This document shows, in pieces, positions 2,192-21,817 of a stretch of 64,000 nucleotides of DNA. The translations under genes were made by a program, and so were the position numbers. Within the stretch, counting starts at the first letter, position 1, and the number at the start of each line of letters is the position of its first letter. Source of the stretch: a virus (taxonomy: Duplodnaviria > Caudoviricetes); the IMG/VR virus record IMGVR_UViG_3300003702_000001, positions 2,160-66,159 of that record; one strand, written 5' to 3'. The notes under the pieces were generated by a model. It did no database searches. It was not told where the DNA came from and worked only from the letters and a program-made list of their open reading frames with translations.

Positions 2192-3637
2192 TTAAAAATT
2201 TAACCCCATAAGGCCCGTATTTGACCCACTGAGGGCTATCTGAGGCTCTTCAAAGATTCCGAGGTCATCAAGTAGTATAAATGTCTCGGAGGCCGTCTGT
2301 GTGGCCGCATTTGCTAATGCAAGGCCCATTACTAAGTCATCATGTGCCCCAACCCCTTCAAATCTTCCTGATTCAGTAATAGTGAACATAGATAATTCCT
2401 CTATTAACGCCGTAGTCATCGCTTTACTGTTATTATCTCCATAAGGGAAATTTAATTTACCATTTTCTATGTTCATCTGTAAGTTAAGGATAATTTCTTG
2501 CTTATTCTTTCTAGTAGTATTGAAATCTTTAATATTTAAGTCAGTCATGCTCCTTAACTCTTGTGTAAATGCCTTTGCGAAGGTGTTTGTCTCATATAAG
2601 ACTATTTCGGGTTGGAATAACTTACCTATGAGTCTAATCTTTTCAATATTCTCTCTAAACTCCACATTTTTTGCCCTATCTACATGAACAATAGTTTTAT
2701 TCTTCTCTTCATCTACTTCCAAGACCATAATTACATTATAATCTCCATCTGTAGAGATAGCAGGGTCAACACCAACATAATATTTATAACCTTTATCTAT
2801 TCGATTACCTAATTTAAGTACATAGTCCTTATTTTTACATTTATCTACATATTCATGGTCAAAGAGAGCAGTTCCAGTTGAAACAGGTATGCATAGATAC
2901 TCTCTTGTGAATTTCAGTGACCCTATCTCAGATTTTCTTTGCATAAGTGCATCATAACCCCATCTATCAGCCCACAGTGGTTCATTTAAAGAATTAAGAC
3001 AAGGATATTTCCTTACAGTATATGCCTCATTTTCTTCTAGTAAAGAAAAAATATCTGTATAAGTAAAAGGAGTTCCTATCATTCTTAGATTAGCAGTATG
3101 ATGCAGAGTAGGAATCATATCTCCAAAGAACCAATCTGTAACTTTCTGTATTGCTGATAAACTAAACTCTTTCAAAGGGTCATCAATAATAATCTCTTGA
3201 GGGTGAAGTCCACGAATCTGAGAACCAATTGAACGCTCTAGAACAGCATTACCATTAGTAAGTTGCATATTACCTATTGCCCATCCTCTCTTCGGTTTAT
3301 ATTTCTTCAATGCAGGAAGACCAAAGACTCTATCTATTTCCCTCATATGTACTAAAGTCTGCTTTTGGTTAGATGAAATATATAGCATTTGAAATGGAGG
3401 TTCTTGAAACACTAAGTTCCAAACTACCCATGAATGCATGAAAACTGATTTGCCGTGGTCTCTTGCACAAACAATAACTGTTCTATCTGTATTTTGCATA
3501 GTTTCGTGCCACTCTTGCATATACTCTGGATATAATAGTCCCAATACATTCTTAAAGAAATAGGGGAAAGAATTTCTAGATAATTCCATGTCCATATTAG
3601 ACACAAAATCAAGTTGTTCTACTTCCACTCTAAACAC
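2192..3637 (-). CDS. terL: Terminase large subunit
   Basis: Walker A CARDHGKS, Walker B IIIDDP, IGTP coupling motif, nuclease VGVDPA and HDDLVM motifs. Confidence 0.95.
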   Translation of the reverse strand: MFRVEVEQLDFVSNMDMELSRNSFPYFFKNVLGLLYPEYMQEWHETMQNTDRTVIVCARDHGKSVFMHSWVVWNLVFQEPPFQMLYISSNQKQTLVHMREIDRVFGLPALKKYKPKRGWAIGNMQLTNGNAVLERSIGSQIRGLHPQEIIIDDPLKEFSLSAIQKVTDWFFGDMIPTLHHTANLRMIGTPFTYTDIFSLLEENEAYTVRKYPCLNSLNEPLWADRWGYDALMQRKSEIGSLKFTREYLCIPVSTGTALFDHEYVDKCKNKDYVLKLGNRIDKGYKYYVGVDPAISTDGDYNVIMVLEVDEEKNKTIVHVDRAKNVEFRENIEKIRLIGKLFQPEIVLYETNTFAKAFTQELRSMTDLNIKDFNTTRKNKQEIILNLQMNIENGKLNFPYGDNNSKAMTTALIEELSMFTITESGRFEGVGAHDDLVMGLALANAATQTASETFILLDDLGIFEEPQIALSGSNTGLMGLNF

Positions 3638-4190
3638 CCTTTATAGTTATCCACCATTTAGAACCAATATATTTCTGTAAAGTCCCTACATTACCACTGG
3701 CTTCTGCAATTGATAATTCATCTAATATATCTTCAGGAATATCTTCTTGTTTAATTGGATGAAAACCTTTTGCTGTATAATGTCTCATTGCACTCCTACT
3801 AGTAAAAGAAGCCAATAATGTTCTATCACCTTTCTCTTTAATAAGTTTATCTATTAATAATCCTACTGCACCTTTTTTTCTATCGCTTTGTCTATATCCT
3901 TCTCTCACATGTATGCCTGAACCTAATAAAAATCCCTTATGTTCTGCAAATCCTAACACACCAATAGGTTTATTTCCTTGCTTCAAATACATAACCCAAT
4001 GATTAGAAGGTTTTGTAGCAAACAACCCAGTCTTAGGTAATCTCTTGTATCTTTGCTGTCTAGTTTGCCATTTAGTATATCCATCCTCTCTAAATACTCT
4101 TATAGATTCTTCTTCCGACATAGCCTTGAAATAAACATCATTCCATGTATAATCATTTTCTGGTGGGAAAGGATAGTCTTCTTTAACCAT
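3630..4190 (-). CDS. GNAT-family acetyltransferase
   Basis: PIGVLGF...GIHVREGYRQ..KGAVGLL (motif A-like) and AMRHYTAKGF (motif B-like). Confidence 0.65.
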   Translation of the reverse strand: MVKEDYPFPPENDYTWNDVYFKAMSEEESIRVFREDGYTKWQTRQQRYKRLPKTGLFATKPSNHWVMYLKQGNKPIGVLGFAEHKGFLLGSGIHVREGYRQSDRKKGAVGLLIDKLIKEKGDRTLLASFTSRSAMRHYTAKGFHPIKQEDIPEDILDELSIAEASGNVGTLQKYIGSKWWITIKGV

Positions 4191-4194
4191 ACAT

Positions 4195-6894
4195 TCACCT
4201 AAAGTTTGCTTTCAAGAAATACACTGTTTCTTGAGTAATACCATGCTTACTTGCTATTTCCCCCATAGAATTAAATTCATTAATTATAGTCTCCACTTCT
4301 GTAGCATTTAAGTCTACATTATAATCTTTCTTTGCTACTTCTATTGCATAATTAACATGGTCATAATTGTCTATTTTAGAAGTATTGTAATGGACCGGTT
4401 TGTTTAACATCTTACGAATATTATCATGGGCTATTAACACTTCTGCTGCCAAGTCTGCTTTCACTATATCAAATGAATCTAATGCTACAAAGAATTTTCT
4501 AATAAGGTTATCTCTCTTAAATCTAGTATCAGATTCATAAGTAGATTTATGTCTTCTAAGATGACTTTCTAGTGCGTCTAATGGATAAGTTTTCTTAGCA
4601 TTGAATTTTTTAGCCCACTCCTCAGAGGTTTTTCCTCTAAAGTCAATAGTTTCTTGTATATTATTCTTCTCTTTAATTTCTTGTAAAATTGTTCCGAAGT
4701 GAATATAAATATCTTCATCATGGTCATAACTAAATATTTCTTCTAGACTTGTTGCTGCTCTATCCATTTTATCTACTAAGTTAGACAGTCTTCTTTGTAA
4801 AGCAGGTTTAGATATTTCTTCCATTAACTCTGTCAATTGTTTTAATGAGTGAACAGAAATCGCTGCAGTTACTAACTCAAAGTATCTAATCATCAATGTA
4901 GCAAATGCATCGGGATTCTTCATCTCATCTCTAAATAATCTCATAGTATATTCTGCAATAAATTCTTGTTCATCATCAAATGGTATGTATCGACTGGTTA
5001 AAGGTATTACAAACGCTTCAACTAATGCTTCCATATATTCCTCATATTCATTAGAAAACATATCCCCAAATAAATCAAGTACATTCTTTCCTTGTTTCTC
5101 TCTACCAGTAGTTCCTTCATATACTTTTATAGGCTCTTTATTCCGCCCTTGAAGAGATGATTGCCTAGTAACTCCACTAGTGGGCCAAGCCTTGTCTTTC
5201 ATACCACCTAGACTCATCATATCTTTTAGTGAATCGAAATGTTCTTTTAATTTTTTAACCTTTTCACCCACATCATCTCTTTCAGATAGGTCTGCTACCT
5301 TGGGGGTTAATGGTAAATAAAATCTATCAGTATCTTTAAAGTCTGTAGCGGTATCATATAATTCATCGAAATAATTATCTAACTTATCTAATTCACTTGG
5401 CTCTAAGAAAATATCTATTCTTGCTGCTTTCTTCTGAACTAATCTTTTTATTGAGGCTACATCATTTTTAAACATTGGCACTCTACCAAATGCTCCTTGT
5501 TCCCAAGCATAATAAAATAGTGGGTCAACCCTTTGAATAGACTTAATTGATTTAATATCTCCTAGAATAGAAGTCACAGCATCTTTGGGTATTCTATGTT
5601 GAGTTCCCGGTTCCATTGTTGCTTGTTCTGCTAATGTTCTTTCATCTTTATCAGGTTTAAAAACATCTCTTTCTATTTTTACATCAGGGTCATGTAATTC
5701 TCTACCTGCTACATCTTGACCCGTTAACCTATAATCAGCAGTTACTTCACCAGTTCCTACGCGTTCTCCTTCTTCTTCACCGAACCTTCTACTAGCCTTG
5801 GGTTGTGCTTGAACCATATACAATTTAAGGAACTCACTAAGTAATACGATAGCCTTTACATTCTTATCATCCATATCAATATTTTTACTAGGAACTTCTA
5901 TAATATAATTGTCTGTCTTATCTAATTTCTTAGAGAAGAAAGCATCTAATTTTGCTTCTATTGCAGACATGATTTTCTCCTTATCTTCATTATCTTCTGC
6001 CTGTTCTTCAACAATCTTAAGTTTCTCTTTTAAGACTCTATGTAGTTCATCTTGAGCATCTATATACTTATTAAAATCATCATGGGCTTCTTTCCAATAT
6101 TTGTAGATTGCTTTTCTTGATTCTAAATTCTTAAGACTCATCCTACCAATTAATAAATCGGGGTGTATAGTTTTAATCTCATCTTTACCTGAAGTTTGCA
6201 ATGATTTTAACTTTCTAATAAATGGCCCCAATCTAGATTCTAGAGAAGCATGTTTAGAAGATTGTGTTCCAAATGCTTCTATATCATGATTAATTAATCC
6301 TCTATCAGTAAAGTAATTAGAATCTTGAGAAATTCCTATTTCTGATATACCCAAAGGTCTAATTTTTCTTAATTTTTTAGTAGTCATTACTCTATTTTTA
6401 TAAGTGAAGTTATCTAGAATATCATCTAAATCAATTTCTTGAACCTGTTCTACTGAGGTTTCTATTGCACCCTTAATACTAGCGTACCTTCTCAAAATCT
6501 CTTTTGTATCTTCCCTTATTTTATTCCATCTTGTTTGTCTAGGCGGCACTAACTCATCAACAAGTTTGCTTATCTTAGAAATTATTAACGATGTCCATTT
6601 CTTTGTGTCTTCTTCTACTACAAAATTAAAATTATATTTAAATTTCCAATCTCCCGTTTCAGTAGCAAAATCTGGATTCAATTTCTTGAATACATCTGCT
6701 AATTCATTGGAAGTGGCTCTACTTGCTAAAGCATCTGCGTAATCTGTTTTAACATCCATTGTAAGTTGGTCTTCATCTGATAGTCCTTCTTCTTCCTTAA
6801 CTTCAGCAAAGAATGAACCACCCTCTTTCCTTGTGAAATAACCAAGAATTTTTTCTCTTCTATTTTGTCCTGCTGCCCAATCTTCTTTAGTCAT
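4195..6894 (-). CDS. Large hypothetical protein (899 aa, charged, helical)
   Basis: Long ORF with genome-typical codon use, coupled to its neighbours; no recognisable motif. Confidence 0.85.
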   Translation of the reverse strand: MTKEDWAAGQNRREKILGYFTRKEGGSFFAEVKEEEGLSDEDQLTMDVKTDYADALASRATSNELADVFKKLNPDFATETGDWKFKYNFNFVVEEDTKKWTSLIISKISKLVDELVPPRQTRWNKIREDTKEILRRYASIKGAIETSVEQVQEIDLDDILDNFTYKNRVMTTKKLRKIRPLGISEIGISQDSNYFTDRGLINHDIEAFGTQSSKHASLESRLGPFIRKLKSLQTSGKDEIKTIHPDLLIGRMSLKNLESRKAIYKYWKEAHDDFNKYIDAQDELHRVLKEKLKIVEEQAEDNEDKEKIMSAIEAKLDAFFSKKLDKTDNYIIEVPSKNIDMDDKNVKAIVLLSEFLKLYMVQAQPKASRRFGEEEGERVGTGEVTADYRLTGQDVAGRELHDPDVKIERDVFKPDKDERTLAEQATMEPGTQHRIPKDAVTSILGDIKSIKSIQRVDPLFYYAWEQGAFGRVPMFKNDVASIKRLVQKKAARIDIFLEPSELDKLDNYFDELYDTATDFKDTDRFYLPLTPKVADLSERDDVGEKVKKLKEHFDSLKDMMSLGGMKDKAWPTSGVTRQSSLQGRNKEPIKVYEGTTGREKQGKNVLDLFGDMFSNEYEEYMEALVEAFVIPLTSRYIPFDDEQEFIAEYTMRLFRDEMKNPDAFATLMIRYFELVTAAISVHSLKQLTELMEEISKPALQRRLSNLVDKMDRAATSLEEIFSYDHDEDIYIHFGTILQEIKEKNNIQETIDFRGKTSEEWAKKFNAKKTYPLDALESHLRRHKSTYESDTRFKRDNLIRKFFVALDSFDIVKADLAAEVLIAHDNIRKMLNKPVHYNTSKIDNYDHVNYAIEVAKKDYNVDLNATEVETIINEFNSMGEIASKHGITQETVYFLKANFR

Positions 6895-8528
6895 ATTTTA
6901 GTCGCCCCCAATAATCCTAATTCTCTCAGTATATCTAAAGGTTCTATTTGTCCTGTGCTGTCTTCATGTTCATCTTCTGCAAGCCTTATTGATTTACTAG
7001 CAATATCTTCCATTTTTTCTATTGTTGCATCAAGAAAGCCTTGTCGTATTTTTTTATAGTCACCCTTTTCTAGTTTATCTAGTATATCATCAACAATCTC
7101 TTTAATTTCAGATTCATCTTTTGATACTAGAATATCATCTACCAAAACATTAAAACCAATCTTACTAAATTTAGTATCTAATTTGGTCAACATCTCCACC
7201 ACATCTTCTGACACCACAACACTCTTATTAAATATATTATCATTAAGTTCCAATCGTCTCTCAGTTGTTGCGGCCCCTACTATAGTTTGAGCAATATTTA
7301 AATCTCTAGAAGTAAACATATTACTAAGGAGTCCAATATCTCTTCTAAATCTTTTAGTTTTTACTCTCATAACATCTTCATGTTCTTCCATCTCTTTCCA
7401 TGCTTGTTTTCTTTCTGGTTCAGAAATCCAATCTTCCCAGTCATCATAATCATCAAACCCATAGGCTTCTGCTACTATATCACTTTCATGTAAATTCAAA
7501 GCATCATAATCTTTTCTAGGTATTTCTCTAGTCTTCGGTTTACCGAGTTGAATCTGCAAATATTCATTATAAGCATTGAACGCCTCCCTTAGTTGTTTAT
7601 CTTCTTTAACTGCTTTCATAAACTTTGATGTATTATTCTCTACTTCATTCATTTTCTCTAGTAACTTAAATAAATTAAACCCGGTTAATTTAGGTAACTC
7701 TTCCTGTTCTTTTATATTTCGTATTGCCATTGCAGTAGCCAAAGAAAGTTTAGTTTTTGGTATTCTAAATACTTTTTCAAGTTCTTCATCTAAAGTAAAA
7801 GTTGGAGTAGCGAGAATGTATTCTAGTGCTGGATATAAAGTATTCTTTTTGGGACCGAATATAAGTGATTTACCCACATTAGGAAGCATTTTTCTTCTAT
7901 TTTTAGGTGTTAATTTACTAGGTCCAAATATTAACATATAATATTCATATATCTTTTGATGAGAAGGAGTGCCTGTTAATTTATATTGCTTAGTCCCTTC
8001 TTTGAATTCCCAGTCTATTGCCTCTAGTCTTTTTATTGTAGATATTCTAAGTTCCTCATCCTTTATCTTCTTTGCGATGGATAAAAGTTCATCCTTAAAT
8101 TTGATTAGAATTTTCTTTCTCTTAGTTTTAGTGTGTTTAGATTTAGTTTCAATATAATTAAATAAAGGCTCAAATTTACCTGCTTTGAATTCAGCAACTA
8201 ATTCCTCTATTTTGGGGGTAATTCCACCTTCTTTTCCCTTCTCAGATTTAACATCCTTAATCTCTTCTAGAACTCTATGCGCCCTTTCTTTTACTTGTTC
8301 TGGTGTTACCTCTTCAATTTCCTTTCCTCTAAAGATAGAACTACCCACACTATCAACAAGTTTATACTTATTGCCTTCTAAATAAGTAGTTAATACATTC
8401 CTAATCTGTAGTACCTTCTGCTCACCAGATTTAACATCTCCTATTAATTTCTCAGTAGATGCGTTATTATAGAGTAAAGCAATTATCCCCATATGTATGT
8501 CTTTTGCGGTGCGCGCTTTCATTAACAT
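6891..8528 (-). CDS. Hypothetical protein (545 aa, Lys/Glu-rich)
   Basis: Long ORF; its stop overlaps the next start (ATGA). Confidence 0.85.
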   Translation of the reverse strand: MLMKARTAKDIHMGIIALLYNNASTEKLIGDVKSGEQKVLQIRNVLTTYLEGNKYKLVDSVGSSIFRGKEIEEVTPEQVKERAHRVLEEIKDVKSEKGKEGGITPKIEELVAEFKAGKFEPLFNYIETKSKHTKTKRKKILIKFKDELLSIAKKIKDEELRISTIKRLEAIDWEFKEGTKQYKLTGTPSHQKIYEYYMLIFGPSKLTPKNRRKMLPNVGKSLIFGPKKNTLYPALEYILATPTFTLDEELEKVFRIPKTKLSLATAMAIRNIKEQEELPKLTGFNLFKLLEKMNEVENNTSKFMKAVKEDKQLREAFNAYNEYLQIQLGKPKTREIPRKDYDALNLHESDIVAEAYGFDDYDDWEDWISEPERKQAWKEMEEHEDVMRVKTKRFRRDIGLLSNMFTSRDLNIAQTIVGAATTERRLELNDNIFNKSVVVSEDVVEMLTKLDTKFSKIGFNVLVDDILVSKDESEIKEIVDDILDKLEKGDYKKIRQGFLDATIEKMEDIASKSIRLAEDEHEDSTGQIEPLDILRELGLLGATKI

Positions 8529-8872
8529 TAACCCTCTCCCCCAACATAACTTTCTTTATTCTTCCAATGAATATCTATCATATCATCGTTCCAATCATAA
8601 AGTGTAACATCAAATTTCGGATACCAACCCACCAACAGGGGTAACGCCTTATCTCTAGACATACCTAAAGTTTCTTCAACATTAAATCTAATATGCCTGT
8701 AGCCTTGTCTTCTAGCATCAATTAATAATGGGTCTATTTTCTCCTTAAATAACTTTTCAGCATTGTAATCATTAATCCTTCTATTAGGATGGTCTAATGG
8801 AACTATCTCATGAAACTCATCCACATCAAATGGAGGGGCTTTTAGTATATTAAACCAACTCATCTTAATCAA
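8528..8872 (-). CDS. Hypothetical protein with MSWFNILK leader
   Basis: ORF track; shared N-terminal motif. Confidence 0.75.
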   Translation of the reverse strand: MIKMSWFNILKAPPFDVDEFHEIVPLDHPNRRINDYNAEKLFKEKIDPLLIDARRQGYRHIRFNVEETLGMSRDKALPLLVGWYPKFDVTLYDWNDDMIDIHWKNKESYVGGEG

Positions 8873-9132
8873 AACCCTCTGGCTAACAACATCTCTCTAA
8901 TATCATTTAAAATATCTTCCAATTGTGAATCTAATTTTTCTAGTTGCTTACCAGCCTCAAGCATTTTTTCCAATTCCTCATCCTCTCCTTCCGGTAATCT
9001 CCTTTCTGCATACTTTTGTAAAGTATTGGCTAAAATATAAATATCGTTGAAACTTATCCCAGTTTCCCAATCATTATCAGTAAGTTGTCTAAACGATTGC
9101 ATGCTCTTCTTTATCCCATCTTTCCAACTCAT
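8869..9132 (-). CDS. Hypothetical protein with MSWKDGIK leader
   Basis: ORF track; ATGA overlaps on both sides. Confidence 0.7.
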   Translation of the reverse strand: MSWKDGIKKSMQSFRQLTDNDWETGISFNDIYILANTLQKYAERRLPEGEDEELEKMLEAGKQLEKLDSQLEDILNDIREMLLARGF

Positions 9133-9797
9133 TGCATTTTCTCCTCTAATTTACTCTTAACATCTAACCATACTTGAGGATGGTTCTGTGCAAGCACTTC
9201 TTGAACGATTTGCATTTGGGCAATGATAATAGTATCTTGCCTCTTATGTATCAACTTACCTTTGAATTCCATCAAATATCTAAGGCTCTCTCGTATCTCT
9301 TTAGCCAACTTAGTTAGACTATCAACATACTTTGGAGTCAAATCTTCTTGTTCAAACAACTCATCTATCTTATCTTCTAACCTAGATATGTTATTTGAGA
9401 GGGTATCTACTTCATCCACTTCTCTGATAGCAATTAAACTAGCCGCAGACTTTTGCACCAAAGGTTGTAAATGATTATTAACATGCCTTACTATTTGGTC
9501 TTCGCTAGAACCAACTATTTCTGCCGCTAAGGTGGGGGTTAAATTGCCATCATGTAACTGTGATTCTAGTTCTACTCGTATAGGGCTAGTGCATAACGCA
9601 CACCTTGGGTTGGAAGAATTAACATAATTGCCCATATGATTTCGTTGATGCCTAGAAGTCGTACCACTAGGCCAATCATTCTCTTTATCTATAGTATCTG
9701 CTGGAACTTCCATTACTTCAAGCCTTCTTTCTATCTCATCTCTATCAGTGTGATTACACAGAAAGCATCTTTTTCTAGTTACCATTTGACCACTCAC
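9129..9797 (-). CDS. Putative terminase small subunit (two CxxC...HxxxH units plus helical C-terminus)
   Basis: CFLC...RHQRNH and CALC...RHVNNH repeats with HTH-like spacing, followed by a coiled-coil; lies upstream of terL. Confidence 0.5.
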   Translation of the reverse strand: MSGQMVTRKRCFLCNHTDRDEIERRLEVMEVPADTIDKENDWPSGTTSRHQRNHMGNYVNSSNPRCALCTSPIRVELESQLHDGNLTPTLAAEIVGSSEDQIVRHVNNHLQPLVQKSAASLIAIREVDEVDTLSNNISRLEDKIDELFEQEDLTPKYVDSLTKLAKEIRESLRYLMEFKGKLIHKRQDTIIIAQMQIVQEVLAQNHPQVWLDVKSKLEEKMQ

Positions 9798-10179
9798 CCT
9801 TAAATTCAGTCTCTAATTTATCATACAACTCTGAGTCATTTTCTTTGATTTGCTCTACAGAACCCTTATTCTTGCTATAAATAACTTCATCTCCTTTTGA
9901 CACATGATTGATATAATCATTATGTACACTAGTTAAGGTTATAGATACCTCATAACCTAGATTAACAAGAAACTCATGCACTTTATTTGTTTCATTTCCT
10001 GAATCTAAAGTATCACCAAACCCAAACTTATTGAAAGCATCTGACCAATGATACTTTTCTCCTAAAATGGCTTTACTTTCTGTTAGTTCTTTAGGAAGTT
10101 TTGTTTGTTTATGTTTTCTACCACAGTCTTTTATTATATTAAACCAATTCATACCATCACCTTCATAATTGTTCTCCAA
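9775..10179 (-). CDS. Hypothetical protein; probable true start MNWFNIIK
   Basis: ORF track; leader motif preceded by a GGTGATGG SD-like sequence. Confidence 0.7.
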   Translation of the reverse strand: MENNYEGDGMNWFNIIKDCGRKHKQTKLPKELTESKAILGEKYHWSDAFNKFGFGDTLDSGNETNKVHEFLVNLGYEVSITLTSVHNDYINHVSKGDEVIYSKNKGSVEQIKENDSELYDKLETEFKGEWSNGN

Positions 10180-11255
10180 TCTCTTATTTCTCTATTGTAA
10201 CTAGTTAATTTTTCATCAGACTCTTCTTTAGGTTCTTCTTTTTCTGGTGGTTTCCACCCTGCTAATTTAGCCATATGATTTACCTGCCTTCTTGAAATGT
10301 AAATGTAGAAATCGTCTATTCTTCCGGGTTGTCCTATGGCTCCTAATAATGCCTTAACTGTTTTACTTTCTGCATTAGTATGTGTAGAAATTGCAACACT
10401 CATTAATCTAGTCCTAGCCTTAGTCGTTGCGAAATTACCTTTACTAGTAGTAAACTCATCATCCTTAGCCATAGCATTCATCATTGCTCTTATTTCACCA
10501 ATGCCATTATATGCTTTTTCGGCTGCACCCTGCTGCTCAATCTTAACTGGCCCTTCTTTGGTAATATGATGTTCTGCTCCATGAAGCATTTTATATCCTT
10601 TGCCCAATACATCATATAAACCATTAACTCCATCAAAGGGCGCAGAACTTCCATCACCATAAATTGCTTGCCACATAGGAGGCATTGCTTCTCCCTTATT
10701 AGGACTAAACCAAGTAGTATCTACAGCATCTATTTCATCCTTCCCTCTAATTAGTCTACGAAATTTAACATACATAGGGGTTCTATAATGACCATACACC
10801 GTTTTTTTAGTTGCTGACCTTTCAGCACGATTAATTTTATCTATTCCATCAAACCTAATATTTCTAGGATTTAAGTCTCCTTCCTTCTTCCCATACTGGC
10901 GTACTATATTTATTACTTTTTCCAATGATTGCAATTCGTTTGTGCTAAAATCTGGCTTCTTGAATAATGTATCTAATTCCTTTAATTCCTTACCTAATCC
11001 GGGAGTTTCTTTTGGGCCAGAGTTTCCCATAATTCTACCTGTAATTCCATGTTGTGCTATCATTTCATAAAGGCTACCATTAAACAACTGAACTCCCATT
11101 GCTTCGCCAGATATTCCCTTTGCTTTTTCTACCCATTCATCCCAAGAAGTAAGTGCATCGTCGCCTTTGTAACTAACTTCGGAGATACCATCTCCAAGTT
11201 TGTATTTGACTTTATCTTTCTTCACGCTCTTTTTTCTTTTTACGACGCTTCCCAC
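10149..11255 (-). CDS. Hypothetical protein (~360 aa), C-terminal DWRTIMK motif
   Basis: Long ORF; start codon uncertain. Confidence 0.8.
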   Translation of the reverse strand: MGSVVKRKKSVKKDKVKYKLGDGISEVSYKGDDALTSWDEWVEKAKGISGEAMGVQLFNGSLYEMIAQHGITGRIMGNSGPKETPGLGKELKELDTLFKKPDFSTNELQSLEKVINIVRQYGKKEGDLNPRNIRFDGIDKINRAERSATKKTVYGHYRTPMYVKFRRLIRGKDEIDAVDTTWFSPNKGEAMPPMWQAIYGDGSSAPFDGVNGLYDVLGKGYKMLHGAEHHITKEGPVKIEQQGAAEKAYNGIGEIRAMMNAMAKDDEFTTSKGNFATTKARTRLMSVAISTHTNAESKTVKALLGAIGQPGRIDDFYIYISRRQVNHMAKLAGWKPPEKEEPKEESDEKLTSYNREIRDWRTIMKVMV

Positions 11256-11343
11256 CCCCTGTTTTATTATTAAATAATGCTGCTGTTCCTGATGAAGTAG
11301 AGGTTACAGCCCCAGTCATTTTTAGTGTATCGAACCAACTCAT
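11212..11343 (-). CDS. Small basic protein, 43 aa (MSWFDTLKMTGAVTSTSSGTAALFNNKTGGGKRRKKKEREER)
   Basis: Translated by hand (below the track cutoff); fills the gap, overlaps the upstream stop by ATGA and carries the shared leader. Confidence 0.7.
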   Translation of the reverse strand: MSWFDTLKMTGAVTSTSSGTAALFNNKTGGGKRRKKKKEREER

Positions 11344-11660
11344 TTGTCTTCACCTAAAAATTCATAAATCCTATTTACATTAATTTCTTTAGTACTTGTT
11401 AATCTTGGGGCTAATGGATTGCCATAAAAGAGAGTTTTAATAGAATGAAGCCATCGTTTCTCTGAGCGTGGGTCAGTGGCTTCCATGTATCTCTTCGTCA
11501 TTAGTAATATTGTAGGCTTTAGTCTTTTAATAGTTTCTTTGTCTTTTATTTCTTTCAACCGTTTAGCCTCATCTTTACCTTCCTGTATATCTTCAGGCGC
11601 AAATTCTTCTGCAACAGCACTTTCATAAGGCTCAATTTTCAATATATCTTCCCAACTCAT
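11340..11660 (-). CDS. Hypothetical protein with MSWEDILK leader
   Basis: ORF track; leader motif. Confidence 0.75.
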   Translation of the reverse strand: MSWEDILKIEPYESAVAEEFAPEDIQEGKDEAKRLKEIKDKETIKRLKPTILLMTKRYMEATDPRSEKRWLHSIKTLFYGNPLAPRLTSTKEINVNRIYEFLGEDK

Positions 11661-11661
11661 A

Positions 11662-12393
11662 CTACTTCCTCATCATATCCATCCAACTCATTGATTTATA
11701 TTCTCTCATACTATCTTTCCATTTTTCTGGGTCTTCTTGTTCAAAGTCTGCCGTAACATCTTTAATGGGTTTAGGGTCTTCTGCTCCTAAATCCTCAAAT
11801 CCACCCATATCTTCTAATTGTTCTTTAGCCAAAGCACTAAGGGTAGCCATAATACAATGTCCTACATAATTCTCAAATTCAGGCGTACTGCCTAATTTCT
11901 CTACTAATTTATTAATTTCATTTCTTAGAGCGAACTGTTCTGTATTGCTCATTCCTTCTTCTATCCAATTAGTCAACAGATGTTCCTTTAGGTCTTGTGA
12001 CATTTTCAACTTTATTGAATCATATATTCCTAGTTGCTTTAAGAAGGTATTAAGTTCATCAGATAAAGTTTCATTATGTCTATCATAATCGGGCATTTCT
12101 ACAACTACATCTTCTACATCTTCCATTGCTGCTATATTAGACATAACCATAGTAATAGGAGTTCCAACCATAGGTTCTATTGCATTATCTTGTTCTAATT
12201 GACTTAATTCCTTAGTATCTAATTCTCGCAAGTCTTCATGTGCTTTTGCAACAAAAGACTGTGCTGCAGCAATTAATCCATTACCTGAATCCATCCTATC
12301 AAATATGGTAGCATAGCGACTACCTTCTATAATCTCTCTATAATCAACCATTAAACCACACCTCCGCTTCATATTCTCCTGTACCACTATCAT
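11662..12393 (-). CDS. Acidic hypothetical protein, C-terminal MSWMDMMRK motif
   Basis: ORF track; true start probably MVDYRE. Confidence 0.75.
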   Translation of the reverse strand: MIVVQENMKRRCGLMVDYREIIEGSRYATIFDRMDSGNGLIAAAQSFVAKAHEDLRELDTKELSQLEQDNAIEPMVGTPITMVMSNIAAMEDVEDVVVEMPDYDRHNETLSDELNTFLKQLGIYDSIKLKMSQDLKEHLLTNWIEEGMSNTEQFALRNEINKLVEKLGSTPEFENYVGHCIMATLSALAKEQLEDMGGFEDLGAEDPKPIKDVTADFEQEDPEKWKDSMREYKSMSWMDMMRK

Positions 12394-12655
12394 ACTGATA
12401 TAAAACCAATTTGGAGCGATTATTCCAAATCCGTAAGAAGGTCGTCAATGCTGGTGTGAAGCCGGTCACATATAAGTGTAACTCTTCAACTTCTTTTTCC
12501 TCTATCCATTTTTCTACATGTTTTTCCAATAGGGGGTATTTTTCCCTTAAACTTCCTTTGGGTAGTTCATCCCAAATAAAATCATCTACTGGCATATCAT
12601 GCCTACTTCTAATCAATCCAACGCTTGTTATATCTTTAATCACATCAAACCACAT
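12344..12655 (-). CDS. Small alpha/beta protein, possibly CARF/Rossmann-like
   Basis: RHDMPVD and LHLYVTGFTPAL motifs; leader MWFDVIK. Confidence 0.45.
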   Translation of the reverse strand: MWFDVIKDITSVGLIRSRHDMPVDDFIWDELPKGSLREKYPLLEKHVEKWIEEKEVEELHLYVTGFTPALTTFLRIWNNRSKLVLYQYDSGTGEYEAEVWFNG

Positions 12656-12659
12656 TCTA

Positions 12660-13292
12660 CTACCTCCAATCTACATCATCTAGTTCTTCTTCCCATTCGT
12701 TAGGAACAACTCTCTCATGTCTAAACCACAGTATAGGTGTAGATTGGTCATCAATTTCTAACATCATTCTAGACACTATTGTAGGCTTATTCCTGTATTT
12801 TCTTTTTTCTGTGGAGGGTAACTCGTAAGAGTGCCTTTTATATTTTGACCACATAACAGTAATTGTATAGTTATCAATTGATTTATTTATATCCGCCTCT
12901 CCTACCTGAGTGAGTGAATTCAACATATCTAACGCTTTACATGCCACCTCTTCAGGTAATAAATCTAAGGTTAAATAAAAATCAATAAATTCAGATGCTA
13001 TACGGCTCCCTCTTAGAAAATAGTTTCTAGATATATAACTTTCTCGTGGTCGAGTATCTTTAAAATTGAAATTCTCATTTCCAATTCGTTTCTCTTCGGG
13101 TATTAATTTATTTAGTAGTTCTACTTTTTTACCATCACCCAAAGTTAATCTAGTTTCTAGTTTATCTTTATATTCCTGTATTTTCTTTTTACAGTCATCA
13201 TCCTCAGTCTCGGATATTTCGGGTTTTTTAATTCTTAACTGCGTCTTAGGTAAAGTGAGAATCTTTCCTTGTTTTAATACTCTCCACCACAT
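12660..13292 (-). CDS. QGKIL-leader paralog 1
   Basis: MWWRVLKQGKILTLPKTQLRIKKP; CKKKIQEYKDKL; PEEVACKALDML; ends VDWR. Confidence 0.8.
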   Translation of the reverse strand: MWWRVLKQGKILTLPKTQLRIKKPEISETEDDDCKKKIQEYKDKLETRLTLGDGKKVELLNKLIPEEKRIGNENFNFKDTRPRESYISRNYFLRGSRIASEFIDFYLTLDLLPEEVACKALDMLNSLTQVGEADINKSIDNYTITVMWSKYKRHSYELPSTEKRKYRNKPTIVSRMMLEIDDQSTPILWFRHERVVPNEWEEELDDVDWR

Positions 13293-13293
13293 A

Positions 13294-13935
13294 TTAATTC
13301 CAAACCACTTCTACTGCTGTGTGTCCTTTGTCTATTAGTTTATAATCTACTTCTATTATATGTCTAAGGAATACTGTTTTATCGTAAGTATCATATCCTC
13401 CAAAGGTATCGGATAAAAAATATTTATCTATTGGTTCAAGGTGTTTACCTACTGGAATAGCATAGGCTGAGAATTCTGTTGACCATCTGTGTATATCTGT
13501 TTTTATATCAGTAACATTGATTACACCAATATTATAATCATTTAAAGTCTCTATATTGTTATCCATTATATGACTAGATTCTTCTATCATATCCAATAAT
13601 CTACATGCTACTGCTTCTGGAATCTCATCATAAAGGTAATCAGTTTGTTCTATACTAACAAATGCGTCATAGTTTTTAAATTCAGTTAACTCTTTAGGTA
13701 ATCCCCAACCAGTCATTTTATATTGAGTGTCTATCTTTCCTTTTAATTTTATATACTCTTTATCTTGCAACCAAGGATTAAGTTTATCATGAGCCATATT
13801 CTTTAGTTTATTTGCATACTCCTGTAATTTCTTATTACAGGTATTTTCCTCTTCTACCTTTTCAGGCTTTCTAATTCGCATGGAGGTTTTAGGTATAGTA
13901 AGTATTTTACCTTGTTTAATTATTTTAAACCACAT
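13294..13935 (-). CDS. QGKIL-leader paralog 2
   Basis: MWFKIIKQGKILTIPKTSMRIRKP; CNKKLQEYANKL; PEAVACRLLDMI. Confidence 0.8.
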   Translation of the reverse strand: MWFKIIKQGKILTIPKTSMRIRKPEKVEEENTCNKKLQEYANKLKNMAHDKLNPWLQDKEYIKLKGKIDTQYKMTGWGLPKELTEFKNYDAFVSIEQTDYLYDEIPEAVACRLLDMIEESSHIMDNNIETLNDYNIGVINVTDIKTDIHRWSTEFSAYAIPVGKHLEPIDKYFLSDTFGGYDTYDKTVFLRHIIEVDYKLIDKGHTAVEVVWN

Positions 13936-13936
13936 A

Positions 13937-14629
13937 TTACAACTTCCTCCAATCTACACTAGGAATTTTTTCAGGAAGAAGTAATAAGGGTGCAATATAA
14001 GCCCAAGAAAAACGCAATACGGCTCGATGTTGACGATATCGTTCCCCCTCCTGACGGTTAGCATCAGCACCGGGGATAATCTCCAGTGTAAGTTCTGTAA
14101 ATATTTTCTCCTCATCACTCCCTTCTATCTGATAATGCATATCTTGCCATTCTCTCTTAGAATACCATGCCTTAATTTTCCATGTTTGTTTATTTTCTTC
14201 AACTGTTGTAGACGGCGTAAATTCAGGCAATGTATTTTCTGGATTAAGTTGTTCCAACTTATCTAAAGCAACACAACATACTTTTTCTGGTATTTGTTCT
14301 ATTTTTTCCTTACTAGAGAAAATAACTTCTTCTCTAAGACTATCCGTACTGCTAAATCGTGATTGCGGGTTCTTCATAGAATGTTTTGGCGCGGTAATAT
14401 ACAATAGAGTATTGGTAGGATTTGATGCTTCTTTTATATCCAAATCTTTATCAACCAAATTTTGCAACACCATTAAAGAACTTCCATTAAGAGACGCTAA
14501 TTTATTTCTATAATGTATTAATTTATCTTTACAAGTTCTTTCCTCTGACTCAGTGGGTTTCTTAATTCTCATAGTAGTCTTAGGAATAGTAAGAATTTTA
14601 CCTTGTTTAACTATTTTCCACCAAGTCAT
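13937..14629 (-). CDS. QGKIL-leader paralog 3
   Basis: Start reset to the ATG at 14629: MTWWKIVKQGKILTIPKTTMRIKKP; CKDKLIHYRNKL; PEKVCCVALDKL; ends VDWRKL. Confidence 0.8.
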   Translation of the reverse strand: MTWWKIVKQGKILTIPKTTMRIKKPTESEERTCKDKLIHYRNKLASLNGSSLMVLQNLVDKDLDIKEASNPTNTLLYITAPKHSMKNPQSRFSSTDSLREEVIFSSKEKIEQIPEKVCCVALDKLEQLNPENTLPEFTPSTTVEENKQTWKIKAWYSKREWQDMHYQIEGSDEEKIFTELTLEIIPGADANRQEGERYRQHRAVLRFSWAYIAPLLLLPEKIPSVDWRKL

Positions 14630-14784
14630 TTCTCTCCACTCCACCACCAATCATATACAGCATCTATAAGTTCCTTTGTCTCATTCCTATGTTCGCGCCA
14701 AATTTTCTTCTTCTTCTTGAGTAATTCATAACCCTCAATTTGTGCATCCCAATATTCCCAATTAATTTCCCATTCTTTCCCCAT
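14626..14784 (-). CDS. Small Trp-rich protein, 52 aa (MGKEWEINWEYWDAQ...YDWWWSGEK)
   Basis: Translated by hand; its stop overlaps the next ATG (ATGA). Confidence 0.55.
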   Translation of the reverse strand: MGKEWEINWEYWDAQIEGYELLKKKKKIWREHRNETKELIDAVYDWWWSGEK

Positions 14785-14785
14785 T

Positions 14786-14906
14786 TCATCTCCAATCTAC
14801 ACTATATTCTTTTATCCAATCTGAGGGCGCAGTAATAGTCCGTCCTTAACTGTGTTTTAGGCAATATGAGGATTTTACCCTGTTTAACTATTCTCCACCA
14901 AGTCAT
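14786..14906 (-). pseudogene. Internally deleted relic of a QGKIL-leader paralog
   Basis: Leader MTWWRIVKQGKILILPKTQLR is joined out of frame to a tail reading RTITAPSDWIKEYSVDWR*; the span is 121 nt (3n+1). Confidence 0.7.
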
Positions 14907-15742
14907 AATAAATTCTTCCCCCCATGAGAATCAATATATTCCTTAAATTTAGAACTTGTTTCATACAATTCCCAAGACCGATTAGAATCCCAATCACTAT
15001 CCAAGTTTTTGTTTATTACTTCTCTCATCAAAACAAAGATTCCACCCGAAGAACCTAAATTATGATTAAGAACCCTATCAATTGTGTTCGAGGGCGATAG
15101 ATTATATTCTTCTTCAAATAATCGTTCATACTCAAGTCTAGCCATTTCTTTAGTCATCAGGCTATCGGTTTGGTTTGCATGAAACTGCGACACTTCTCCC
15201 TTCCAAATACCTAATCCTGATTTATTATTCATAGCAGAATCATAATGCCAATAATCTCTAGGTATTGGAGCAGCAGTTATCATGTTACGATACCCATTTC
15301 CTTGCCATGTTGCTATATCATACCAATTTTTAGGTAAATCTTCCCTCCAAGATGAAACGGGTGCAATATAAATGAAACCTATCCTTTCATCATGTGCCTT
15401 TAACATGAAATCATCTACATCTTTACTTGCCAACATTTTTTCCTCTATTTGTTTTGGTAATTTCTTACCTAGTTTTTTCTCCATAGCCGCTATATGTTCT
15501 TGTATTGATGGTGCATCATTACGACCACTAACACCTCTAACCTTTATTGGAATCAAAGTTTTAACATGGAATGCAGGACTACCTAGAAAATTTGGAAATG
15601 GATAATGCTTCTCCATCACTTGTTCAGCACTATTCTGTCTAGGGTCATAAAGTAAAATAGTGCCATTACCAATATTCTCTTTTTTCAAAATATTGGGCCA
15701 AGCAAGTATTTTACCTTGCTTAACAATCGCCCACCAACTCAT
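14903..15742 (-). CDS. Hypothetical protein with QGKIL leader on an unrelated body
   Basis: MSWWAIVKQGKIL from the ATG at 15742; the Cys motifs of paralogs 1-3 are absent. Confidence 0.8.
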   Translation of the reverse strand: MSWWAIVKQGKILAWPNILKKENIGNGTILLYDPRQNSAEQVMEKHYPFPNFLGSPAFHVKTLIPIKVRGVSGRNDAPSIQEHIAAMEKKLGKKLPKQIEEKMLASKDVDDFMLKAHDERIGFIYIAPVSSWREDLPKNWYDIATWQGNGYRNMITAAPIPRDYWHYDSAMNNKSGLGIWKGEVSQFHANQTDSLMTKEMARLEYERLFEEEYNLSPSNTIDRVLNHNLGSSGGIFVLMREVINKNLDSDWDSNRSWELYETSSKFKEYIDSHGGKNLL

Positions 15743-16101
15743 ATTCCAAACCACTCCAATATTTTAGGCCAATATTTACTTAGAGTTTGATTTGTCTCTA
15801 CATTCCATGCAATTTGTATCTTATCCAACAATGCTTTTATCTCATCTTGTTCATGTTGTTCATCAAGTGCTTCTATATTGCCTTCTTTCTTCATTTCATT
15901 AAATGCTATAGAGGCTAGAGCCTTAAAATTCCTAGGAGTATATTTCATCGTAGATAATTTGAGTAATGTCTTTAATAATTTCTGATAAGTGTCTGATTGA
16001 ACAAAATTCTTTCCCTGTTCGTAATCCCACCTACGAAGTTTATCTAAGAATGTAGGTTTAAGTACATCTTTGTACTTAATTATCGTCCACCAATCACTCA
16101 T
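15739..16101 (-). CDS. Hypothetical protein with MSDWWTIIK leader
   Basis: ORF track; first gene of the leftward block. Confidence 0.75.
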   Translation of the reverse strand: MSDWWTIIKYKDVLKPTFLDKLRRWDYEQGKNFVQSDTYQKLLKTLLKLSTMKYTPRNFKALASIAFNEMKKEGNIEALDEQHEQDEIKALLDKIQIAWNVETNQTLSKYWPKILEWFGI

Positions 16102-21730: not shown

Positions 21731-21817
21731 TGCGAGGTTCCCAAGTATGGTCAAAGGGGCCGGACTTAAGATTCGGTGCGTAGTGCTTCATGGGTTCAAA
21801 TCCCATCCTCGCAACCA
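21731..21817 (+). tRNA. tRNA-Leu (anticodon TAA), CCA encoded
   Basis: Acceptor stem TGCGAGG/CCTCGCA; D-loop with GG; anticodon arm CCGGA-CTTAAGA-TTCGG; long variable arm; T-arm ATGGG-TTCAAAT-CCCAT; discriminator A plus CCA. Confidence 0.95.

Follow-up and report, generated by a model that had tools for sequence, protein, structure and literature searches.

Analysis of a 64,000-nucleotide stretch of viral DNA (positions 2,160 to 66,159 of the IMG/VR record IMGVR_UViG_3300003702_000001; hereafter the window) revealed that 15 of its proteins, most of them otherwise unrelated, carry the short peptide W-x-x-[ILV]-[LIV]-K at one terminus. Comparison of the window with related genomes shows that this peptide, hereafter the tag, is a portable address that is terminal and modular, is selected at the level of the protein and belongs to the head-morphogenesis block only. 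The reading we favour, with a probability of roughly 55%, is that the tag is a prohead address and a propeptide in one, like the capsid-targeting sequence (CTS) of phage T4, and that it is read by the protease-scaffold-capsid system of the virus. An earlier note, made from the letters of the window, had already put forward capsid targeting. Selection on the peptide, its confinement to the head block, the orphan nature of its carriers and the presence of a similar peptide at the tail of the protease-scaffold, all described below, strengthen that idea, of which sequence alone is no proof.

Tagged proteins of the window

Six-frame translation placed all 12 N-terminal strings listed in the earlier note at the starts of minus-strand open reading frames (ORFs), with the pattern M-x(0-2)-W-x-x-[ILVTG]-[ILV]-K, and its three C-terminal strings at the ends of three further ORFs, where the motif ends 0-3 residues before the stop codon (Table 1). 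In each N-tagged ORF the start codon lies no more than 13 in-frame codons from the preceding stop. Since the core of the tag occurs inside related proteins at a rate of 2.5e-4 per residue, fewer than 0.1 chance N-terminal matches were expected in the window compared with the 12 seen, and chance is ruled out as their source. On the plus strand the core was matched only twice, both times internally, and none of the plus-strand ORFs (19-53 kb) begins with the motif, in agreement with the initial observation that the replication block is free of it.

The description of the tagged proteins as mostly unrelated proved right, since eight N-tagged and all three C-tagged proteins show no mutual similarity (E <0.05), with the qualification that the proteins starting at 13292, 13935 and 14629 are paralogues with ~32% identity across ~120 residues. 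Alignment of 120 tagged representatives from the lineage left only M1, W3 and K8 in common, with a mean column identity of 3%, and Pfam gave five matches among them, each to a different family, too few for a census of functions. Given that alignment and similarity tests show unrelated bodies, we rejected pure paralogy as the source of the shared tag. The 279-residue protein of the window has five homologues among 5.8 billion proteins (47-70% identity), and all five keep the tag, in differing sequence and with a linker of 4-22 residues to the conserved body. A longer leader, Q-G-K-I-L-T-x-P-K-T, follows the tag in the three paralogues, the 279-residue gene and a 34-residue fragment (window 12660-15742), which form a sub-family with a longer common N-terminus; the Q-G-K-I-L-type extension is absent from the homologues of the 279-residue protein elsewhere.

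Spread of the tag across the lineage

A survey of 80 IMG/VR loci anchored on the gene for the terminase large subunit (TerL) revealed the motif at the start of 452 of 1,874 sense ORFs compared with none of 2,149 antisense ORFs. In a census of non-overlapping gene calls, which added the window to the 80 loci and in which the first 12 residues were removed before families were assigned, 503 of 1,596 genes were tagged. They fall into ~210 of 396 families, including 118 of 225 singletons, and nearly all are orphans. The shared terminal motif thus recurs lineage-wide when protein termini of related genomes are examined. The conserved core genes, i.e. those for TerL, endonuclease, portal, a 900-residue protein and ligase, are never N-tagged, indicating that the tag is a mark of hypervariable accessory genes; each genome encodes 10-24 tagged proteins.

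The consensus of the tag is M-S-W-[EFKQ]-[DEN]-[IV]-[LIV]-K, and the residues past the Lys are not conserved. Met and Trp are separated by exactly one residue in 198 of 219 families, the final residue is Lys in 95% and Arg in 4% of cases, and several families begin with a Phe variant, M-S-F-M-D-I-L-[RK]. Proteins with the tag are soluble, hydrophilic and mildly acidic; their median isoelectric point is 5.3 and their median length 105 residues.

We then scanned IMG/VR and 596 Gb of cellular genomes with a degenerate, codon-specific DNA pattern for M-S-W-x-D-I-L-K. In IMG/VR the pattern was found in more than 120 stretches; among the 120 examined, 107 resemble magrovirus proteins and 107 hold at least two tags. 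The cellular genomes gave 36 scattered single matches to this pattern (our own estimate of chance is ~26), none of them in Poseidoniales and none with a second tag or with similarity to magroviruses, and the tag as a host signal was rejected on this ground. In the head module of halovirus HVTV-1 the tag was found at no protein terminus, so that its inheritance with a halovirus-type head module was rejected as well. The lack of the tag in cellular genomes and in HVTV-1 indicates that it is specific to these viruses.

Confinement to the head block of a magrovirus-like genome

Magroviruses, described by Philosof et al. in 2017, are reportedly head-tailed viruses of marine group II archaea. Searching 20 kb of the window against GenBank phages with megablast gave no match, while the TerL of the window matched Terminase_6C (E 4.5e-6). 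IMG/VR contains 172 close relatives of this TerL; they come from marine contigs that reach ~100 kb, and five of these contigs are rated complete (95-99 kb). In the closest complete genome (G001) the gene order is TerL, HNH-like endonuclease, portal, a run of small genes that includes tagged ones, ATP-dependent ligase, S78 prohead protease (Peptidase_S78, E 4.9e-9, above cut-off), major capsid protein (MCP) of HK97/SU10 type and tail, and a large block of genes lies on the opposite strand; this block is conserved among the genomes compared. The closest cultured MCPs are those of haloviruses HVTV-1 and HCTV. The lineage therefore combines a halovirus-like structural module (TerL, portal, prohead protease, HK97-type MCP) with a ligase between portal and protease, an endonuclease after TerL and a large opposite-strand block. 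Published magroviruses have such a module in genomes of 65-100 kb, with ligase and nuclease genes inside it and a large replication block of archaeal type (PMC5434244), and since gene layout and embedded ligase and nuclease match this description, the window is part of a magrovirus-like genome, i.e. that of a head-tailed virus of marine group II archaea.

Within this layout the tags follow the head genes. In three complete relatives and the window, tags are present on 43 of the 221 genes of the TerL strand compared with 1 of 248 on the opposite strand (p = 2e-14). A scan of five genomes with a position-specific scoring matrix gave N-terminal matches in 61 of 167 genes of the head block, compared with 1 of 296 genes for replication and 1 of 87 for the tail. 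The first run of tagged genes lies between a divergent control region and TerL (window 8.5-16.1 kb) and the second between portal and the ligase-protease-MCP group; one further tagged gene follows MCP, and none was placed among the tail genes. A divergent complete genome (G006), whose MCP is 47% identical, carries 24 tags in the same layout. Both counts uphold the claim of the earlier note that all tags lie in the packaging-module block, here the head-morphogenesis block. That note had also weighed its capsid idea against the case of a motif equally frequent in non-virion genes, and the figures for replication and head genes show that it is not.

Selection on the peptide at either terminus

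C-terminal tags numbered 47 compared with 3.6 expected. Of 23 orthologues of a conserved magrovirus protein of 350-370 residues (family 13), 19 retain the C-terminal tag, in forms as different as D-W-R-T-I-M-K, D-W-R-E-I-I-K, S-W-E-E-I-L-K and N-W-K-D-I-L-K, and the Trp of the tag is one of seven invariant columns of the family. All seven orthologues of family 32 carry a C-terminal tag, again in differing sequence, and at least 13 of 26 orthologues of a GNAT-like protein (family 11) end in one. In family 20, M-S-W-F-T-V-L-K is prefixed to a body that begins directly in other members, so that related bodies occur with and without the tag, which comes and goes as a unit. The persistence of C-terminal copies in orthologues, while the sequence of the tag diverges, is decisive: selection acts on the peptide, and the tag appears to work at either terminus.

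An AlphaFold2 model of the family 13 protein (mean predicted local distance difference test score, pLDDT, 80.5; predicted template modelling score 0.72) shows a confident body at residues 14-339, a disordered linker of low confidence at 340-358 and a terminal helix at 360-367, also of low confidence, that begins at the invariant Trp. The fold had no match in the PDB by Foldseek and only unnamed viral proteins in BFVD. For this family and for the 900-residue protein (family 6), profile searches of PDB sequences and the protein atlas gave nothing, and a wide VIA-align search gave generic helical matches with a best Z of 6.2.

It is conceivable that the signal resides in the nucleic acid, as a translation-initiation context or as a short homology block for the shuffling of cassettes by recombination, with the peptide as a by-product. 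The Ser codon of the tag is AGT in 131 of 132 cases (99%, against 28% in the background) and never AGC or TCN (L001-L080 and the window). A-ending codons (GAA, AAA, ATA) are over-used inside the tag and Leu TTA is under-used (20% against 42% in the background), making ATA-TTA-AAA runs rare. A Shine-Dalgarno-like GGNGG is found at -12 to -8, the genes that bear tags are hypervariable cassettes, and C- and N-terminal tags stand in tandem at two junctions of the window. However, AGT is likewise the preferred second codon of genes without a tag (24 of 37; 65%), indicating that the AGT bias is partly a general start context. Moreover, codon bases 1 and 3 of the two aliphatic positions vary within a constant residue class, with all Leu codon families as well as Ile and Val in use, and the C-terminal and internal copies are conserved across orthologues far from any start. 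A signal of this kind is in our view highly improbable as the explanation of the tag. The Lys of the tag is AAA or AAG at background frequency. The codon bias may reflect a constraint of start context, a shared ancestry of the DNA that encodes the tags, or the avoidance within genes of sequences that resemble TATA.

At the two junctions (window 10149-10181 and 11660-11691) the C-terminal tag of the upstream protein stands immediately before the N-terminal tag of the next gene: D-W-R-T-I-M-K-V-M-V and a stop, then M-N-W-F-N-I-I-K; and M-S-W-M-D-M-M-R-K and a stop, then M-S-W-E-D-I-L-K. The adjacency is not universal, as the family 13 gene of G001 precedes an untagged gene. Tandem tags could be a trace of recombination at tags, which could be a secondary effect; recombination has been proposed for the internal-protein loci of T-even phages. 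Degenerate versions of the tag also seem to be present close to the C-termini of two other conserved proteins: the family 6 protein (window 4195-6894) always ends in V-Y-[FYH]-[LIV]-K-A-N-F-R, and a Cys-rich protein of 220 residues (family 8; window 9129-9797) in V-W-L-D-V-[RK]-x-K-M-E-E-K-L-Q.

Tag-like motifs in protease, portal and capsid protein

To our knowledge, the S78 prohead protease-scaffold is the only protein of HK97-type viruses that is known to need an encapsidation signal. In the magrovirus-like genomes this protein is made up of an S78 domain and a helical region that is acidic and resembles a scaffold; its C-terminal extension is conserved and ends in Phi-[SD]-W-x-[DE]-I-H-x-Phi. 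This end is conserved in 27 sequences, with an invariant Trp and variable flanks. The same motif, in the form M-[SD]-W-x-[DE]-I-[HNR]-K, ends a conserved protein of 76 residues (family 4; L083:13553-13792 and orthologues), whose gene is present in 70 of the 80 loci, a short way upstream of the ligase-protease-MCP group, and which is a candidate small scaffold or head-internal protein. The matching position in HVTV-1 holds a gene for 63 residues without the motif.

Prohead proteases classically cleave the portal, the MCP and themselves, and all three proteins carry internal sites that resemble the end of the tag. The protease has two, F-x-I-L-K/S just before the S78 domain and K-F-D-I-L-K/E at its end, with the Lys at about residues 21 and 171; the portal has M-F-x-D-V-L-K/E near residue 134 in 40 of 40 sequences; and the MCP has G-W-R-V-L-K/S at 88-95, with the Lys at 94, directly before a stretch rich in Gly, Ser and Thr. 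Tag-like cores that end in [IV]-L-K occur 17 times in 39.6k residues of head-block proteins compared with twice in 80k residues of replication and tail proteins; orthologous sites are included in these counts, but the background is low all the same. The S78 protease of HK97 cleaves its MCP at K103/S104 (PMC10275583). Together, these sites make removal of the tag after its Lys, as suggested in the earlier note, a plausible event, although the cleavage itself is a prediction.

The same sites raise the possibility that the tag is a processing signal only, i.e. that [IV]-L-K shows the S78 protease which proteins to activate, inactivate or remove at a given time and has no role in capsid entry. The strong preference for Lys over Arg fits a protease specific for the P1 residue, as does the K/S site of HK97. 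Yet a cleavage site need be neither at the extreme terminus with a fixed Met-Trp spacing nor preceded by an invariant Trp five residues upstream, and C-terminal tags would shed just 2-4 residues. Since prohead proteases of this type generally act only within the assembled prohead, processing would already imply encapsidation. We consider a role in processing without capsid entry unlikely.

Proposed role of the tag and points against it

In the mechanism that we propose, the pattern S/T/D/N-W-x-D/E would be a helix capping box and the tag a short amphipathic helix on a flexible linker, with Trp, Ile and Leu placed by the capping-box rule on one helical face. The word amphipathic, applied to the tag from the outset, is a reasonable inference from this pattern. 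During prohead assembly the tag would dock on a partner that is also used by the S-W-x-D-I-H C-terminal peptide of the protease-scaffold; the partner could be the inner face or the scaffold of the HK97-type capsid, or the protease itself, and diverse cargo would thereby be enclosed. The S78 protease would then cut after the Lys of [IV]-L-K, as at the similar sites of portal and MCP and on the flanks of its own domain, and this would free the cargo inside the head. The freed cargo would probably enter the next host cell with the DNA and serve host takeover or counter-defence. Encapsidation, cleavage, injection and a role in counter-defence are thus predicted from genes.

Several points weigh against this reading. 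Magroviruses are uncultured, and the presence of tagged proteins in virions and their processed N-termini are likewise predicted. The registers of tags and internal sites do not match, the invariant aromatic residue being at P6 in the tags and at P5 in three of the four internal sites, and in the C-terminal motif of the protease H replaces L-K. Since K-F-D-I-L-K lies inside the conserved S78 domain, its conservation may be structural, and since C-terminal tags would lose only 2-4 residues on cleavage, cleavage cannot be their purpose. The tagged proteins are acidic whereas the internal proteins of T4 are basic, and 10-24 cargo species of up to 800 residues are much for a head that holds ~95 kb of DNA. 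An AlphaFold2 model of the MCP, aimed at placing G-W-R-V-L-K in the HK97 fold, was unusable (pLDDT 41, 16 close sequences). The AGT bias described above reveals some constraint, either on the nucleotide sequence or through shared ancestry. Finally, a ubiquitin-like system co-occurs with the tag in every complete genome examined.

This co-occurrence raises the possibility of another role, in which the tag serves the viral ubiquitin-like system or other turnover, either by docking on the ubiquitin-like protein (Ubl) in the manner of an LC3-interacting region (LIR) or as an acceptor consensus, W-x-x-Phi-Phi-K, of the E2-like enzyme, leading to modification or degradation. All three complete genomes with tags encode homologues of E2-like enzyme, E1 and JAB, and two of the three also encode Ubl, so that tag and system are inseparable by presence and absence. 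In addition, the Lys of the tag is nearly invariant, and the core W-x-x-[ILV] equals, if trivially, that of the LIR, which in Atg8 binding is [WFY]-x-x-[LIV], usually with acidic residues upstream. A general degron or acceptor would, however, be expected anywhere in the genome, whereas the tags are limited to head-block genes. The tag-like motifs of protease-scaffold, portal and MCP speak for a link with capsid assembly, the form on the protease lacks the Lys, and the acidic residues upstream of a LIR are absent, Met and Ser preceding the Trp. A role in the ubiquitin-like system or in turnover is accordingly improbable. Its narrower form, in which the E2-like enzyme or the Ubl (by a LIR-like contact) reads W-x-x-Phi-Phi-K and the Lys is modified, appears to us very improbable; a defined set of head-associated proteins would then be ubiquitin-tagged, a modification that might go together with loading into the capsid or with timed removal. 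In that case no viral or archaeal Ubl system would have had its substrate consensus defined before.

It is also possible that the tag docks on an assembly partner outside the final particle, such as the 900-residue protein, a conserved protein of 545 residues, a chaperone or the terminase, and that tagged proteins act in the infected cell only. The form of the tag, a short linear motif on a flexible linker, would suit such docking, several conserved magrovirus-specific proteins without assigned function lie in the same block, and the GNAT-like protein whose gene adjoins that of TerL is itself tagged. Against this, the closest variant of the motif sits on the protease-scaffold, which in HK97-type assembly is enclosed in proheads, and the partners listed are conjectural. 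We give docking outside the particle a small chance of being correct and retain the prohead address as the favoured role of the tag.

Features of the window and its relatives

The coordinates of TerL, the landmark that identifies the block as the head-morphogenesis and packaging module, and of the tagged genes are given in Table 1. Pfam and PHROGs gave nothing significant for the ten larger tagged proteins of the window. The orthologue of the GNAT-like protein in G001 has a weak, sub-threshold match to Acetyltransf_10 (E 3e-4; 21.1 bits, cut-off 23.6). The ORFs of 43 and 34 residues may not be functional genes.

Table 1. Terminase gene and tagged genes of the window (the start of each gene is its higher coordinate)
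Feature	Coordinates	Strand	Tag and remarks
120-residue orphan	15739..16101	minus	N-terminal M-S-D-W-W-T-I-I-K (16075-16101); no Pfam or PHROG family, one sub-threshold lysozyme match
279-residue orphan	14903..15742	minus	N-terminal M-S-W-W-A-I-V-K (15719-15742), then Q-G-K-I-L extension
34-residue ORF	14802..14906	minus	N-terminal M-T-W-W-R-I-V-K and Q-G-K-I-L leader; probably what is left of a truncated member of the paralogue family
230-residue protein	13937..14629	minus	N-terminal M-T-W-W-K-I-V-K; paralogue of the proteins starting at 13935 and 13292
213-residue protein	13294..13935	minus	N-terminal M-W-F-K-I-I-K; paralogue
210-residue protein	12660..13292	minus	N-terminal M-W-W-R-V-L-K; paralogue
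103-residue orphan	12344..12655	minus	N-terminal M-W-F-D-V-I-K
243-residue protein (family 32)	11662..12393	minus	C-terminal M-S-W-M-D-M-M-R-K (11665-11691)
106-residue orphan	11340..11660	minus	N-terminal M-S-W-E-D-I-L-K
43-residue ORF	11212..11343	minus	N-terminal M-S-W-F-D-T-L-K; 44-nt overlap with the start of the next gene
368-residue conserved protein (family 13)	10149..11255	minus	C-terminal D-W-R-T-I-M-K (10161-10181), then V-M-V
125-residue orphan	9775..10152	minus	N-terminal M-N-W-F-N-I-I-K; ATG overlaps the preceding stop (ATGA)
87-residue orphan	8869..9132	minus	weaker N-terminal M-S-W-K-D-G-I-K (Gly at first aliphatic position)
111-residue orphan	8528..8863	minus	N-terminal M-S-W-F-N-I-L-K
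186-residue GNAT-like protein (family 11)	3630..4190	minus	adjoins TerL upstream; C-terminal K-W-W-I-T-I-K (3639-3659), then G-V
Terminase large subunit (TerL)	2192..3637	minus	without tag; landmark

A gene for tRNA-Leu (anticodon TAA) lies at 21731-21817 within the plus-strand block. The minus strand of 54119-64000 is a single giant ORF of at least 3,237 residues that continues past the end of the window and has a GC content of ~40% compared with ~33% in the rest of the window; by its position it is probably the final, fibre-like gene of the structural module, and the matching position in G001 holds proteins of 2,192, 1,540 and 1,376 residues. The IMG/VR record behind locus L118 (G007; 184,733 bases) carries two S78 protease genes, near 72.5 kb and 164 kb; it is double the usual genome length and probably consists of two magrovirus genomes joined in assembly.

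Discussion

The principle of a short terminal peptide that directs proteins into a protein shell is already known from the T4 targeting sequence, the protease tail of HK97 and the targeting peptides of encapsulins. What is new is the motif, its setting in an archaeal virus, its use at both termini, its sharing with the protease-scaffold and its scale, i.e. 10-24 genes per genome and more than 200 families. The published descriptions of these viruses covered by our reading of the literature, which is not exhaustive, do not mention an N-terminal motif.

The CTS of T4 are N-terminal propeptides of 10-19 residues on diverse, poorly conserved internal proteins, with targeting residues followed by a gp21 cleavage site. 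After binding to the scaffolding core they are cut off; gp21, too, carries propeptides at its termini, with a suspected role in its own targeting (PMC9026906, PMC3012670). At position 10 of the CTS, targeting and processing have reportedly been told apart. Like the CTS of IPI, IPII, IPIII and Alt, the magrovirus tag is a short N-terminal peptide common to otherwise unrelated, fast-evolving proteins of one virus encoded near the head genes, would combine targeting residues with a terminal, here putative, protease site and is matched by a terminal motif on the protease itself. Unlike them, it belongs to viruses of an archaeal host with a protease of HK97/S78 type rather than gp21, and there is no apparent relation in sequence. 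The putative P1 residue is Lys, whereas T4 sites have an acidic residue, and the magrovirus tag, known here from genes alone, is also C-terminal, marks 10-24 genes per genome and has acidic cargo.

Duda, Oh and Hendrix (2013, cited in PMC12749128) reportedly describe a C-terminal encapsidation tail of the HK97 maturation protease gp4. As in that protein and in scaffolds with coat-binding C-termini, the magrovirus S78 protease with its helical acidic region ends in a short conserved peptide, and by this analogy the C-terminus of the protease-scaffold would be the expected place for a capsid-binding element. In contrast to the gp4 tail, the magrovirus type of peptide is also found on hundreds of non-structural orphans, and its binding function is putative.

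Encapsulin cargo-loading peptides are short and terminal and load unrelated cargo into a shell of HK97 fold from either terminus, and like the tag they have aliphatic residues followed by a basic residue. Encapsulins are, however, DNA-free cellular compartments without portal or protease, and their peptides bind in an extended form and lack Trp. In the magrovirus-like viruses the shell gene accompanies TerL, portal and tail genes in a 95-kb virus genome, and we regard the relation as an analogy and claim no homology. The post-portal proteins of halovirus HVTV-1 (gp113-gp115) and polyvalent or ejection proteins are encoded at the same position, between portal and the protease-MCP pair, and probably share a purpose with the tagged proteins, the delivery of accessory proteins with the DNA. 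Haloviruses differ in that they have a few giant, fused, untagged proteins there, whereas the magrovirus proteins are many, small and separately tagged.

Magroviruses are among the most abundant archaeal viruses of the surface ocean, and most of their genes are orphans. A tag of eight residues sorts a third of their head-module genes, in more than 200 families, into one functional class and provides a simple sequence handle for locating tagged genes in metagenomes. It also predicts the cleavage specificity of the S78 prohead protease and the maturation sites of portal and capsid protein, and may serve, as it stands, to bring foreign proteins into shells of HK97 type. Should the tag prove to be a capsid address, the tagged genes would be the arsenal that these viruses package and probably inject. 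It would be the first arsenal of this kind in a virus of archaea, with the T4 targeting sequence and the cargo loading of encapsulins as its natural counterparts.

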